Shown: piece after piece, positions 22,578 through 27,492 of the stretch
Layout: each line of letters begins with the position of its first letter
How positions within the stretch are numbered: position 1 is the stretch's first letter
Source: a virus
Virus record (IMG/VR): IMGVR_UViG_3300025127_000012
Direction: 5' to 3' (one strand)
Length of the DNA stretch: 64,000 nucleotides
Notes under the pieces: generated by a model
What the model was told of the DNA's origin: nothing
Database searches by the model: none
The model's input: only the letters and a program-made list of their open reading frames with translations
Made by a program: the position numbers and the translations under genes

Positions 22578-22585
22578 TATAAATA
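22578..22585 (+). promoter_or_regulatory. T4 late promoter TATAAATA driving the + strand operon
   Basis: Exact consensus 24 nt before the 22610 ATG. Confidence 0.8.
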
Positions 22586-22609
22586 TGGGTGAAGGTAGTA
22601 TAAAAAATC

Positions 22610-23116
22610 ATGAAACGATTATTAATCTTCTTCGGTATGATGCCTTTCTTAGGTGTAGGTGCTGCTCATGCAGACATTACACATAAGTTAAGTTCATCAG
22701 TTCAGTTACAAGTAAACGCAGCAGCGACTCAGGTTGAGCGTATTGGTTCAACGTACTCTGTAAGTGGTAACAATGTGACCACACAGTACACACCAACAGG
22801 CGGTAGTGCAACATCATCCATAGGTAGTATGACTATCTCATCAGGTGTTGGTGCTATACCTACGTTATCAGCAACCCAGGCAACAGCAGGGGAGAGTTGG
22901 AGCTTTACTCAGTCATTCACCCAAGGTGATGCTATATCAGGTAGTGCACCGACTGTTGGTGAGGTTGGAAACTTTTCCAGTCAAGTATCAACAGCAGCAG
23001 GGTCAGCGGGTAGTCTAGCGGGTACAATCGACACATCAGGAACCATTGCATTAACTGCTGGTGGTGCTGGTACACAAGCGACTGGACAGGTGGTCAGCGA
23101 ACTAACAGTGAGATAG
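22610..23116 (+). CDS. Secreted Ser/Thr/Gly-rich beta-strand protein
   Basis: Sec signal peptide MKRLLIFF...AAHA; beta-rich mature part. Confidence 0.85.
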   Translation: MKRLLIFFGMMPFLGVGAAHADITHKLSSSVQLQVNAAATQVERIGSTYSVSGNNVTTQYTPTGGSATSSIGSMTISSGVGAIPTLSATQATAGESWSFTQSFTQGDAISGSAPTVGEVGNFSSQVSTAAGSAGSLAGTIDTSGTIALTAGGAGTQATGQVVSELTVR

Positions 23117-23125
23117 GTGAGACAT

Positions 23126-23554
23126 ATGAGGAGTAACATAAAACTACTTCTTATATGCTTTGCCATGGGCGCAAACCCAGTGTTTGCAGTGCCTGTGGTG
23201 CCTAATTTTACACAAGGTAGTATGACGTCTCACACTGAGACGACTACGACAGTCACTGAGACTATAAATTCGATGGATTATAATACTGGGTACCAGTGGA
23301 CCGCAACAGGCACTGGTGTTACAGCATCTGGTAATCTATCACCAACAACTACAAGTAATAATGTAACTATTGAAGGAGTTGCTTCAACATGGACAGGAGT
23401 GGATACAAAACCGACGTTTACACAGACAACGCCAGGTGCGAACTTCCAATTCACAGAGACATACAGCGGACCAGGGTTGTCGAATCACACCGTGATAAAT
23501 CGAACCACCACTATCCAAAGCGTCACAGACACAACCAGTATCTTTCAGCAATAG
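23126..23554 (+). CDS. Secreted Thr-rich protein
   Basis: Signal peptide ...NPVFA|VPVVPNFTQG. Confidence 0.85.
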   Translation: MRSNIKLLLICFAMGANPVFAVPVVPNFTQGSMTSHTETTTTVTETINSMDYNTGYQWTATGTGVTASGNLSPTTTSNNVTIEGVASTWTGVDTKPTFTQTTPGANFQFTETYSGPGLSNHTVINRTTTIQSVTDTTSIFQQ

Positions 23555-24988: not shown

Positions 24989-25514
24989 TCCATTCAGTCG
25001 CTATCTGACCACCTATGTCAGCACCTTTATCAGCAGCACCTAGTGCTACAAGACCTCCTAGAACTGGACCTACGAATGGTACAGCAACTACCTTTGCACC
25101 AGCAGCAGTACCAACAGCAGCACCTACTACCTTGCCTGTCTGTTCACCACCACCTTCTGCCTTGATGCATGCTACGTTGAGTGCATTTGCTTCTGCCATG
25201 CCTAGTACACCTAAATGGGTCTTACCATCCATTGTATACTCATCTACAACAGTCTTTTCTGTTTTCTTTGTTAGACCTTTAACGATAGTTGATGTGCTCT
25301 TGACCATAGTCTTAGGGTCATTCGCTTGATAACTTACCTTATACCCATCCTTAGATGCTGATATAGCATATGATGTATATGGTCCTACTGGTGGACTGAT
25401 AAGTGGTATCTGGTCTTTAACTCCGACTCGTGATACGAGGAGTGCAATCATACCTATATGTGAGAGTCCTACTAGACCACCCACTGTCGCTATAAGTATG
25501 TTTCTGCTCTTCAT
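24957..25514 (-). CDS. Glycine-zipper membrane protein
   Basis: N-terminal TM; GxxxG repeats GKVVGAAVGTAAG...GPVLGGLVALG. Confidence 0.8.
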   Translation of the reverse strand: MKSRNILIATVGGLVGLSHIGMIALLVSRVGVKDQIPLISPPVGPYTSYAISASKDGYKVSYQANDPKTMVKSTSTIVKGLTKKTEKTVVDEYTMDGKTHLGVLGMAEANALNVACIKAEGGGEQTGKVVGAAVGTAAGAKVVAVPFVGPVLGGLVALGAADKGADIGGQIATEWSEACDPDTTD

Positions 25515-25729
25515 TTTAGTGGTAAAGCGGGTCCAGAGAAGTCGGGTAGAGCATCTGGAACCATGTCAGGTAACGAACCAGACACTGCACCGAGTGCTGC
25601 TCCTGTTACTTTTGTTTTAATGTTGTCAATGATTGCATCCTTACGGATGAATACATATCCACCGAGTCCTACGACTGAAAGTGACACCACACCACCAAAA
25701 ATGGCGATAGCATTAACGAGTTTTTGCAT
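25511..25729 (-). CDS. Small membrane protein
   Basis: N-terminal TM; Pro-rich tail. Confidence 0.75.
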   Translation of the reverse strand: MQKLVNAIAIFGGVVSLSVVGLGGYVFIRKDAIIDNIKTKVTGAALGAVSGSLPDMVPDALPDFSGPALPLK

Positions 25730-26025
25730 TACTTTTTACCTTCTGTTTGCATGTACTTGCATGTTGTTCCTTTGGGTGAGTCACCATTCTTTTTGGACGT
25801 GGCGACACCGAAAGTGGCAAGTGTTCCTGTGAAAACGCTGGCTATGAAAGTGGGATCGATGTTTGTCTTTGCAAGTCCTGGGACCTGTAAGTAATTAATT
25901 GTGAGGATCGCAGCGGACCATCCTAGAATCACCAGACGGACCAGTGTTGCAACTGCATCGTCGTCTCTCTCATGCTTAACTATTTTCTGTTCTGGTTGTA
26001 CGACCTCTGTCTTCGCTGTTGACAT
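25729..26025 (-). CDS. Small two-TM membrane protein (holin-like topology)
   Basis: LVRLVILGWSAAILTINY and DPTFIASVFTGTLATFGV segments. Confidence 0.75.
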   Translation of the reverse strand: MSTAKTEVVQPEQKIVKHERDDDAVATLVRLVILGWSAAILTINYLQVPGLAKTNIDPTFIASVFTGTLATFGVATSKKNGDSPKGTTCKYMQTEGKK

Positions 26026-26046
26026 AAGATAGAGGGGGTAGCACCT

Positions 26047-27492
26047 TTATTTAGACAATTTATCATTTCCAATATACATTTCTTCAATTCCTTTCTTAGA
26101 GAATAATTCTTTTGCTTCCCACATCTTAGATGCTATTGGTTTACCACCCATATTCAGTGATGTATTGAGTAAAACAGAGTCACCTGTCAGTTCTTTGTAC
26201 TTACGAAGCAACTTAGCGAAAGAATCATCACCCTCCACTGTTTGTATGCGGCTACTGCCATCTACATGTGTCACAGACAACAATTCTTCGTCGTGAACGT
26301 ATGCACATGTGTTCATATATGGACTCTTACCCTTAAACTCGAAGTATTTTTGTGTATCTTCCAGTAGTACCGCAGCACCGAAGGGTCGGAAGTGTTCTCT
26401 ATGTTTAACCTTACTGTTCAATTCGTTCTTAGCGTTCGGTAATCTGGGGTTTACAAGGATAGAACGGTGTCCTAGTGCTCTTGGACCTATCTCACCATGA
26501 CCTTGGTACCAACCAACAATTTTACCCTGTGCAAGTGACTCTGCTGCCTCTGTAATGGTCTTATCAGTGGGTTCTTCGGGTGCTTCATCGTCCTGCCAGA
26601 AGGGGAACCCAGTAGTATCGAAGGGTTCTTCATGAAACTTCTGTCTTAAAAATTCTACCGCACCTAGTGATAGTCCACAATCGTTAGCATGAGGTGGAAT
26701 TCGTACATCTATGCCTGATTCATGCAGTTTTCCATTGAATACAGAGTTTTGTGCTACACCACCAGTGTAGGTCACAGGTCCATCACCAGTGCGACTCATG
26801 TACTCTACCAGTTTGTCACCAGTTATCTCATGTACAGTGCGTAACCAGTTAATATCGAACTCATTATCCCATTTTCTGATCCATGAATCATAGTTCCAGA
26901 TCTTTTTGATCTCTTCAATACTATACTGATCCATCAGGTTATAGTAGTTGGGTTCATTCATGCCATATGACTGCAATCCCATCACTTTTCCTGCTAAATC
27001 TAGTCCCCACTCGTCTGCTGTGAACCCACAAGTCCTACCCACATATGCCATTTCAACACCGATAGAACCAGTCTTCTTGACACTGTGTGAACTCTTCAAT
27101 TTACCGTTCAAATACAGTGAATGTGACCTATCATTGTTCCCAAACCCATCAAACACATAGTTTACCTTGGGTATGTCACCAAGCATCCATGTGCTCAACA
27201 CATGTGCCCAGTGGTGGTCGACTGCATACGTCTTACATGGCAGTCCTAAGTCTAAATCTCTATAATTTTCGTTCTCTGCGAAGCAAATCTTGTCTGTGAT
27301 CATAGCAATAGCATCTATGTCACTTAATTTTACACCCCAAGAATCTAGCACATCTGACCACTGCCAAATGTTGTCGTATCCATGATGTTTAATGCCGAAA
27401 AGACGCTCAGTTGCACAATACTTTACTGTTTTACCATCAGTATATGTAATGTTGGAATCATGATCATCAATTCTTAATCCTAAGAATTTCAA
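26047..27492 (-). CDS. Carbamoyltransferase (NodU/CmcH family)
   Basis: HDS, HHWAH, DGFG, GKVMGL, GGVAQN, GPRALGHRS, REHFRPF, LNTSLN. Confidence 0.93.
   Translation of the reverse strand: MKFLGLRIDDHDSNITYTDGKTVKYCATERLFGIKHHGYDNIWQWSDVLDSWGVKLSDIDAIAMITDKICFAENENYRDLDLGLPCKTYAVDHHWAHVLSTWMLGDIPKVNYVFDGFGNNDRSHSLYLNGKLKSSHSVKKTGSIGVEMAYVGRTCGFTADEWGLDLAGKVMGLQSYGMNEPNYYNLMDQYSIEEIKKIWNYDSWIRKWDNEFDINWLRTVHEITGDKLVEYMSRTGDGPVTYTGGVAQNSVFNGKLHESGIDVRIPPHANDCGLSLGAVEFLRQKFHEEPFDTTGFPFWQDDEAPEEPTDKTITEAAESLAQGKIVGWYQGHGEIGPRALGHRSILVNPRLPNAKNELNSKVKHREHFRPFGAAVLLEDTQKYFEFKGKSPYMNTCAYVHDEELLSVTHVDGSSRIQTVEGDDSFAKLLRKYKELTGDSVLLNTSLNMGGKPIASKMWEAKELFSKKGIEEMYIGNDKLSK
26048..26054 (-). promoter_or_regulatory. 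Late promoter CTAAATA for the membrane-protein operon
   Basis: Late box ~23 nt upstream of the 26025 ATG. Confidence 0.6.

Follow-up and report, generated by a model that had tools for sequence, protein, structure and literature searches.

A conserved, mobile cassette of exported and membrane proteins in marine T4-like cyanophages as a candidate envelope-breaching module

Between the genes for Hsp20 and a carbamoyltransferase of a T4-like cyanomyovirus lie seven open reading frames (ORFs; positions 22610-26025) that encode three exported and four membrane proteins, and these are the subject of this report. The DNA is IMG/VR virus record IMGVR_UViG_3300025127_000012, of which a stretch of 64,000 nt (the window) was analyzed. 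Comparison with other cyanophages shows that the seven genes constitute a conserved, horizontally mobile, mid/late-expressed module that is not part of the virion and whose products are directed to the cell envelope. Genomic context and timing lead us to favor a role in breaching the envelope at lysis, a function that we rate at slightly under an even chance, and the cassette is the best candidate for the envelope-breaching step in these highly abundant cyanophages, which have no recognizable spanins.

The plus strand carries A (22610-23116, 168 aa), B (23126-23554, 142 aa) and C (23389-24384), with a spacing of 9 nt between A and B, and with the 5′ end of C lying in the -1 frame of the 3′ end of B (dual-coding stretch, 23389-23554). 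Converging on this A-B-C operon is a minus strand operon, consisting of G (25729-26025, 98 aa), F (25511-25729, 72 aa), E (24957-25514, 185 aa) and D (24179-24988, 269 aa). The stop of G and the start of F overlap (TAATG), as do the stop of F and the start of E (ATGA), and D begins 32 nt inside E, a head-to-tail packing that would fit a single, translationally coupled operon. The 3′ ends of C and D overlap by 206 nt, and no intrinsic terminator was found between the two operons.

All seven ORFs match large cyanophage PHROGs (E 1e-25 to 1e-125), and the products of B and G also match the Pfam families DUF6322 (E 7e-41; 139.3 bits against a gathering threshold of 30.6) and DUF6450 (E 4e-30; 104 bits against a cut-off of 25), respectively. 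Given these matches, the two Pfam scores being above the curated cut-offs, the ORFs are genes and not chance reading frames, as the first-pass annotation, made from the sequence letters, had supposed for each of them. Their counterparts are A, phrog_564, T4-GC237 and Syn9 gp167; B, phrog_650, T4-GC236 and gp166; C, phrog_848/1755, T4-GC235 and gp165; D, phrog_570, T4-GC234 and gp164; E, phrog_605, T4-GC219 and gp163; F, phrog_568, T4-GC414 and gp162; and G, phrog_721, T4-GC218 and gp161. In P-RSM4 the homologues are PRSM4_176-169, noted as T4-like GC 237, 236, 235, 234, 219, 414 and 218, and correspond to gp167-gp161 of Syn9; tBLASTn matches to the homologues in these two phages range from E 1e-10 to 1e-116, at 33-77% identity.

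In T4-type late promoters, a conserved box lies about 10 nt upstream of the transcript start, and transcription is late. A putative box of this type, TATAAATA, occupies positions 22578-22585 of the plus strand, with 24 nt separating it from the ATG of A, and is the sole plus strand copy in the 64 kb window. It is kept in the close clade, while other clades have CTAAATA or CTATATAG at the same distance, the CTAAATA heptamer being found before A in many relatives. The minus strand operon is likewise preceded by a putative late box, CTAAATA (26048-26054), 22 nt before the ATG of G and within the last codons of the carbamoyltransferase gene. The originally described arrangement, three exported proteins behind the plus strand box and four membrane proteins behind the minus strand heptamer, is therefore upheld. 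A further CTAAATA, on the minus strand at 22523-22529, precedes the hsp20 start by 51 nt and lies in the short, divergent intergenic region that also holds the TATAAATA of A.

Protein features were taken from the sequences, alignments and a hydropathy scan. The N-termini of A and B have a short basic start (MKR or MR), a hydrophobic core and an AxA-type site, the cleavage-type motif of A being AHA after its MKR start and hydrophobic stretch, and both proteins are rich in Ser, Thr and Gly (42% of residues in A and 39% in B), in agreement with the initial description. The profiles of A and B can be aligned with each other (hhalign; probability 97.5%, E 8e-12), so the two proteins are distant paralogues. 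B is Thr-rich, a Met at position 23126 is conserved, and translation would most likely begin at this ATG rather than at the GTG at 23117.

C has a more complex organization. A basic pre-region (~50 aa) precedes a signal peptide that has its hydrophobic h-region at 23542-23592 and a VRA|E cleavage-type site; the mature domain, which is conserved, then runs from 23599 to about 24135, and the remainder, up to 24384, is a tail that is not conserved. Homology to other phages ends near 24133, and the last ~80 codons are conserved in the closest clade only. Distant homologues carry an ordinary, short Sec signal peptide right at the N-terminus, from which it follows that the C family is exported. The four Cys residues that had been pointed out in C turn out to be invariant in 43 diverse homologues, and this constancy of Cys, seen also in D and E, is compatible with an oxidizing compartment. 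The first 40 residues of mature C are nearly invariant, while synonymous sites over the same stretch vary freely, which points to an interaction or assembly surface. An AlphaFold2 model of B is all-beta, with strands at residues 31-62 and 107-140 (32 and 34 residues; predicted local distance difference test (pLDDT) 72, predicted template modeling score (pTM) 0.31). That of mature C, built on a 43-sequence alignment (pLDDT 74, pTM 0.44), has a disordered segment (residues 1-30), beta hairpins (35-117) and a 42-residue helix (120-161). Foldseek searches with the B and C models returned no significant match to a solved fold.

The first ATG past the stop codon of B is at 23581, in the middle of the C signal peptide. 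As the signal peptide begins upstream of it, C must start at the ATG at 23389, which lies 163 nt before the B stop, in a frame that is -1 relative to B and open from about 15 nt upstream. An in-frame ATG is present 163-172 nt before the B stop in nearly all related loci, and in many of them there is no alternative ATG, GTG or TTG ahead of the mature domain of C. The start codon is formed by NNA-TGG at a conserved Trp of B. Of 54 distinct sequences, 53 have A as the wobble base ahead of this TGG, whether the codon specifies Thr, Ser, Leu or Gln, and the entropy of the base is 0.13, compared to ~1.1-1.9 at Thr codons elsewhere. Synonymous variability in the remainder of the B/C overlap is only slightly lowered (1.08 versus 1.27), so that the conserved element is mainly the start codon and the open frame. 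Initiation within B gives C its basic N-terminal extension of ~50 residues ahead of the signal peptide, and represents a clear case of a long, out-of-frame overlap that is retained on account of a start codon. Programmed -1 frameshifting between B and C was considered and judged unlikely: there is no slippery heptamer within the open C frame, and in MED4-184 the C gene is in the +1 frame relative to B, with an annotated start 8 nt before the B stop.

The membrane proteins largely conform to what had been read from them at the outset. G has two hydrophobic segments, at about residues 25-46 (hydropathy 2.0) and 59-75 (weaker, and rich in Thr, Gly and Ala), and a Lys-rich C-terminus with 6 Lys in the last 23 residues. 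There are 2606 related clusters, and none of the best 120 carries the name of a characterized function. F has one transmembrane (TM) segment and an acidic, Pro-rich tail; its database label, 'plasmid stability', was not borne out by searches of Pfam and NCBIfam, which gave no family at E values up to 1 beyond chance-level rows. In D, four invariant Cys are accompanied by a Pro-rich linker, and near the C-terminus a hydrophobic segment is followed by a very basic tail (14 Lys/Arg in ~52 residues); no hydrophobic h-region lies ahead of the conserved 'PGC' of this protein. The N-terminal TM segment of E contains a conserved His and is followed by a middle, periplasmic-type domain rich in conserved Tyr and by a C-terminal region in which a glycine-rich hydrophobic stretch lies between two conserved Cys. 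The description of E as a glycine-zipper protein is only partly sustained, as the stretch contains G/A-xxx-G/A repeats and so resembles glycine-zipper families at the motif level, but 25 E homologues had no match to Rick_17kDa_Anti, Gly-zipper_Omp or Gly-zipper_YMGG at E values up to 1.

The genes have been reported before. Sullivan et al. (2010; PMC3037559, Fig. S9) described a 'mobile hypothetical gene cluster' of unknown function, comprising T4-GC 218, 219, 234, 235 and 237 and the 'plasmid stability' gene T4-GC 414, and proposed just a functional linkage and possible mobilization by the 'plasmid stability' gene. The same set of genes is present here in an unchanged order, and the cassette is again found at variable genome positions. 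It is nearly universal in marine T4-like cyanophages, with C being detected by tBLASTn in 419 phage records compared to ~462 cyanophage records carrying gp43. Linkage was counted in 80 related viral metagenome loci, using as denominators those with room for the gene. A and B precede C in all 61 such loci, and D directly follows C in all 72, on the same strand in 32 and on the opposite strand in 40. The convergent layout noted at first is thus no defining trait, as D shares the strand of A-B-C in 32/72 loci. An active inversion switch at D was also considered and discarded, as no inverted repeats flank the gene. Where at least 3 kb of downstream sequence was available (n = 47), single-query tBLASTn found G in 37 loci, F in 33 and E in 28. 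E is the least tightly linked member, being ~50 kb away in P-HM1/2 and absent from the cassettes of phages that are not T4-like.

Synteny, as seen in 85 loci, shows that the genes are clustered. Mobility is also evident from the neighboring genes, which include hsp20 and the carbamoyltransferase gene in the window, hsp20 and regA in Syn9, hli genes in P-HM2, pstS in P-RSM4, and neck, sheath-stabilizer and terminase genes in S-CAM9. The co-occurrence across cyanophage families that had been suggested as a check was found, with the cassette present as a unit in both T4-like and non-T4 cyanophages. The order is G A B C > < D F in MED4-184 and G A B C > < D in the metagenomic phages L086 and L096. 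The T7-like P-SSP6 carries G, B, C and a weak D-like ORF without A, in the order truncated D, G, B, C, between a tail-fibre-like gene and the terminase gene; the truncated D-like ORF retains the Pro-rich part, TM segment and basic tail. G is the first cassette gene in all four of these phages.

A scan of genome contigs for the cassette family recovered only phage-sized contigs or mis-binned contigs of metagenome-assembled and single-amplified genomes, so the family looks phage-restricted. Records assigned to Formosa, Nonlabens, Lewinella, Euryarchaeota, Chloroflexota and Gammaproteobacteria (L098-L108) carry the gene on contigs of up to 188-194 kb, and these are most likely mis-binned or co-assembled cyanophage genomes, not cellular homologues. 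A gene for a staphylococcal-nuclease-like protein (SNase) lacking a signal peptide is present on the minus strand of the window at 58179-58622, and homologues in phage DSL-LC02 (L109:4886-5299) and metagenome contig L090 (2004-2504) sit in the cassette between D and F. With no signal peptide and a homologue elsewhere in the window, the SNase was not accepted as a cassette member and was treated as an insertion, its gene having been gained or lost by the module.

Two of the non-T4 contexts bear on function. One is a lineage of roughly 42 kb typified by L086 (80 loci, with contigs of up to ~45 kb), in which the gene order is fixed: tail-fibre-like gene, Phage_OMP (PF24653), F, D > < C, B, A, G and, beyond G and divergent from it, a 57 aa gene, a C39-like peptidase gene, a 65 aa gene, the dCTP deaminase gene and then replication genes. 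The C39-like peptidase matches a PHROG 'endolysin' family (E 2e-60), and its relatives in other cyanophages are annotated as lysozyme or endolysin. G is therefore one gene (57 aa) away from an endolysin-like gene in this lineage, unlike in T4-like genomes. The other is P-SSP6. In T7, genes 17.5 and 18.5/18.7 lie in the tail fibre-terminase interval, which is where P-SSP6 has the cassette. The P-SSP6 and L086 sites are places where small phages keep lysis genes.

Several further genes were seen in these contexts. A protein of ~55 aa with an ILKPILM...TDNxxDD motif (phrog_2738/402) is encoded beside the cassette in three non-T4 cyanophage contexts (L086:1387-1560, L004:5619-5819 and L005:3552-3716). 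In the L086 lineage its gene directly precedes the endolysin-like gene, and no homologue was found in the window. The position of E is taken in the L086 lineage by a gene for a PF24653 'cyanophage outer membrane protein-like beta barrel' (120 aa, L086:4808-5170), and in DSL-LC02 an annotated outer membrane protein gene (L109:12383-12754) lies ~8 kb from the cassette. A tBLASTn search of the window with the PF24653-type gene gave no match, and the nearest record (46 kb, 25% complete) contains neither the C39-like endolysin nor Phage_OMP.

The timing of expression has been determined for the homologues in P-HM2, PHM2_191-197, among which A, G, F, D and, in the light, B are Late, and C is Mid (Thompson 2016, Table S2). 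The designation of the two gene sets as late operons is supported by the late-type boxes before both and by the Mid or Late classes of the P-HM2 homologues. Contigs from RNA libraries of three seawater studies cover all seven genes; they indicate presence only, and give neither a ranking of expression nor transcript ends. Cross-recruitment to the invariant stretch of C accounts for a peak of RNA depth at 23571-23731. The published virion proteome table (S-SM1, Syn9 and S-PM2) lists none of the seven T4-GCs, and for this reason the cassette products are not considered ordinary parts of the virion, a view that had also been taken initially.

Taken together, context and timing favor lysis, and a mechanism can be envisaged in which G would be a holin-type protein that sets the timing and permeabilizes the inner membrane. 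After export, A, B and C would build up beyond the cytoplasm and oligomerize into a beta-rich assembly in the peptidoglycan/outer membrane layer, which the Pro-rich, membrane-anchored D, together with E and F where present, may tie to the inner membrane. In T4-like genomes the gene for the murein hydrolase would lie elsewhere, and the cassette proteins would jointly breach the envelope, a task for which other phages that infect Gram-negative hosts use spanins. In its most specific form, the proposal is of a previously unrecognized lysis machinery, in which a periplasmic-side beta oligomer of A, B and C perforates or detaches the peptidoglycan/outer membrane layer, is triggered and anchored by G, F, E and D, and replaces spanins in most marine T4-like cyanophages and some podoviruses; this we regard as possible, yet distinctly more doubtful than a part in lysis as such.

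A number of observations weigh against a lysis function. No component has sequence similarity or significant fold similarity to a characterized holin, spanin, endolysin or pore protein. The T4-like cassette includes no endolysin, and tBLASTn searches of the window with cyanophage lysozyme and the C39 endolysin found none there either. The proximity to an endolysin gene is confined to one lineage and so counts as one evolutionary event, and late expression fits other roles too. S-PM2 is lytic yet lacks the cluster. Among the components, E is often unlinked or absent, and an alignment of 39 homologues of D shows neither a recognizable signal at the N-terminus nor a lipobox. Visual inspection and a hydropathy scan, rather than SignalP or DeepTMHMM, were used to assign signal peptides and TM segments, and confidence in the AlphaFold models is intermediate (pLDDT 72-74, pTM 0.31-0.44).

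Among other explanations, superinfection exclusion or receptor masking is the foremost, with the exported proteins coating or plugging the outer membrane or periplasm against further phages, or against the loss of progeny on debris, and the membrane proteins anchoring or exporting them. Phage T5 provides a precedent in Llp, which shields progeny from receptor on cell debris. Every cassette product is envelope-directed, the family is phage-restricted with no evidence of cellular homologues, and the cassette moves between unrelated phages that have only their host group in common, as would be anticipated of a host-surface function. Expression in P-HM2 is mid to late, however, and not early; the cassette occupies lysis-gene sites in small phages and lies near an endolysin gene; and its near-universal conservation and the very strong purifying selection on C contrast with exclusion genes, which tend to be sporadic. 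On balance we consider this role unlikely. A little less likely again is some other envelope function, such as the passage of nutrients or ions through an outer membrane channel or a periplasmic structure built by the phage, or else targeting to the thylakoid lumen and not the periplasm, as cyanobacterial Sec signals serve both membranes. The auxiliary genes that surround the cassette (hsp20, the pstS of P-RSM4 and the hli genes of P-HM2), and the replacement of E by a PF24653 beta-barrel gene in one lineage, would be in keeping with such a function, but nutrient-uptake genes are expected to be early or middle while most cassette genes are late, none of the proteins is similar to porins or transporters, and the gene neighborhoods in small phages are indicative of the lysis region.

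That the proteins are ordinary virion or assembly components, such as tail or fibre accessory proteins whose hydrophobic N-termini are not export signals, would agree with the late promoter-like boxes, with the neck, sheath-stabilizer and terminase genes beside the S-CAM9 cassette, and with the phi29-like phage tail tubes among the weakest fold matches of B; set against their absence from the virion proteome table, it appears very improbable. We retain envelope breaching at lysis as the preferred function. Of the envelope system proposed by the first-pass annotation, the exported and membrane-bound products, their co-occurrence and the late-type control all stand, while homology or significant fold matches to a holin, spanin, secretin, curli or pore protein were not obtained.

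Returning to the wider genome of this T4-like cyanomyovirus, the landmark genes are those for the gp43 DNA polymerase (18702-21188), Hsp20 (22028-22471) and the carbamoyltransferase (26047-27492). The best gp43 match among cultured phages is 75.8% identical, so there is no close cultured relative, and the cassette is matched at 96-100% by several IMG/VR viral metagenome contigs (L006-L014). A, B and C had been thought the only credible plus strand genes of the window; they are indeed genes, but three other plus strand ORFs of at least 90 aa (2332-2622, 9650-10072 and 38441-38773; 96-140 aa) are not overlapped by any longer minus strand ORF, and A-C may not be the sole genes on this strand.

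Although the cluster has been known since 2010, an envelope or lysis reading of it is not found in the searchable literature, and a search on the cassette, DUF6322, DUF6450 and Syn9 gp161-167 recovered no functional work. What is new here is the envelope reading itself, the paralogy of A and B, the start of C within B and the two orientations of D, along with the non-T4 contexts, the endolysin-adjacent lineage, the truncated D of P-SSP6 and the long-hairpin models. A sizeable fraction of Prochlorococcus and Synechococcus cells is killed by T4-like cyanophages, a group with no spanin recognized to date. The survey of Kongari (2018) covered 677 phages, of which 91 were 'spanin-less', 20 of them marine cyanophages, and P-RSM4, P-HM1/2, Syn9 and many other marine cyanophages are listed without an identifiable spanin. 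We also found no paper assigning a holin to marine T4-like cyanophages. If the cassette is a lysis system, it would represent a new solution to outer membrane disruption and offer a handle on the timing of lysis in the ocean; if it is not, it would still be among the most conserved unexplained modules of ocean viruses.

Comparison with known systems places the cassette near, but not among, established lysis genes. Profile searches of Pfam, NCBIfam, PADLOC and PDB sequences placed A, C, D, E and F in no functional family, a search of the ESM Atlas with C retrieved viral hypothetical clusters only, and there was no significant similarity to secretin, curli, porins or transporters. The monomer models of B and C consist mostly of long beta hairpins with no compact core, and in this resemble oligomeric, long-hairpin beta-barrel formers; their top, non-significant Foldseek rows are aerolysin-type toxins, the stems of anthrax PA and CDTb, the FlgH L-ring and phi29-type tail tubes. 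G is comparable to a class II holin in predicted architecture only (98 aa, two hydrophobic segments and a charged C-terminus). The Rz1-type o-spanin lipobox, [LVI][ASTVI][GAS]C, is not conserved in any of the seven N-termini, and the single Cys in the signal peptide of B is preceded by Ile and is not conserved. With no lipobox in any member, the cassette has no canonical spanin (o-spanin or u-spanin), confirming an early impression. Of the traits of an i-spanin, an N-terminal TM segment is seen in E and F, while the long helix belongs to the model of C, a protein with a cleavable signal in place of the TM segment. D recalls the unimolecular spanin gp11 of phage T1 in its C-terminal TM segment and Pro-rich region, but is twice as long and has no signal or lipobox, whereas gp11 opens with a lipoprotein signal. 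Canonical lysis cassettes, such as S-R-Rz/Rz1 of lambda, or 17.5, 3.5 and 18.5/18.7 of T7, differ from the present one in having a lipoprotein and a coiled-coil i-spanin with an N-terminal TM segment, neither of which is recognized here, and an endolysin, which is lacking in the T4-like cassette, and they have no counterpart to its three exported, beta-rich proteins. What they have in common with it is late timing, a small protein whose two TM segments are followed by a charged C-terminus, partners that are Sec-exported or membrane-anchored and have conserved periplasmic Cys, the lysis-gene position in P-SSP6 and the endolysin neighbor in the L086 lineage.

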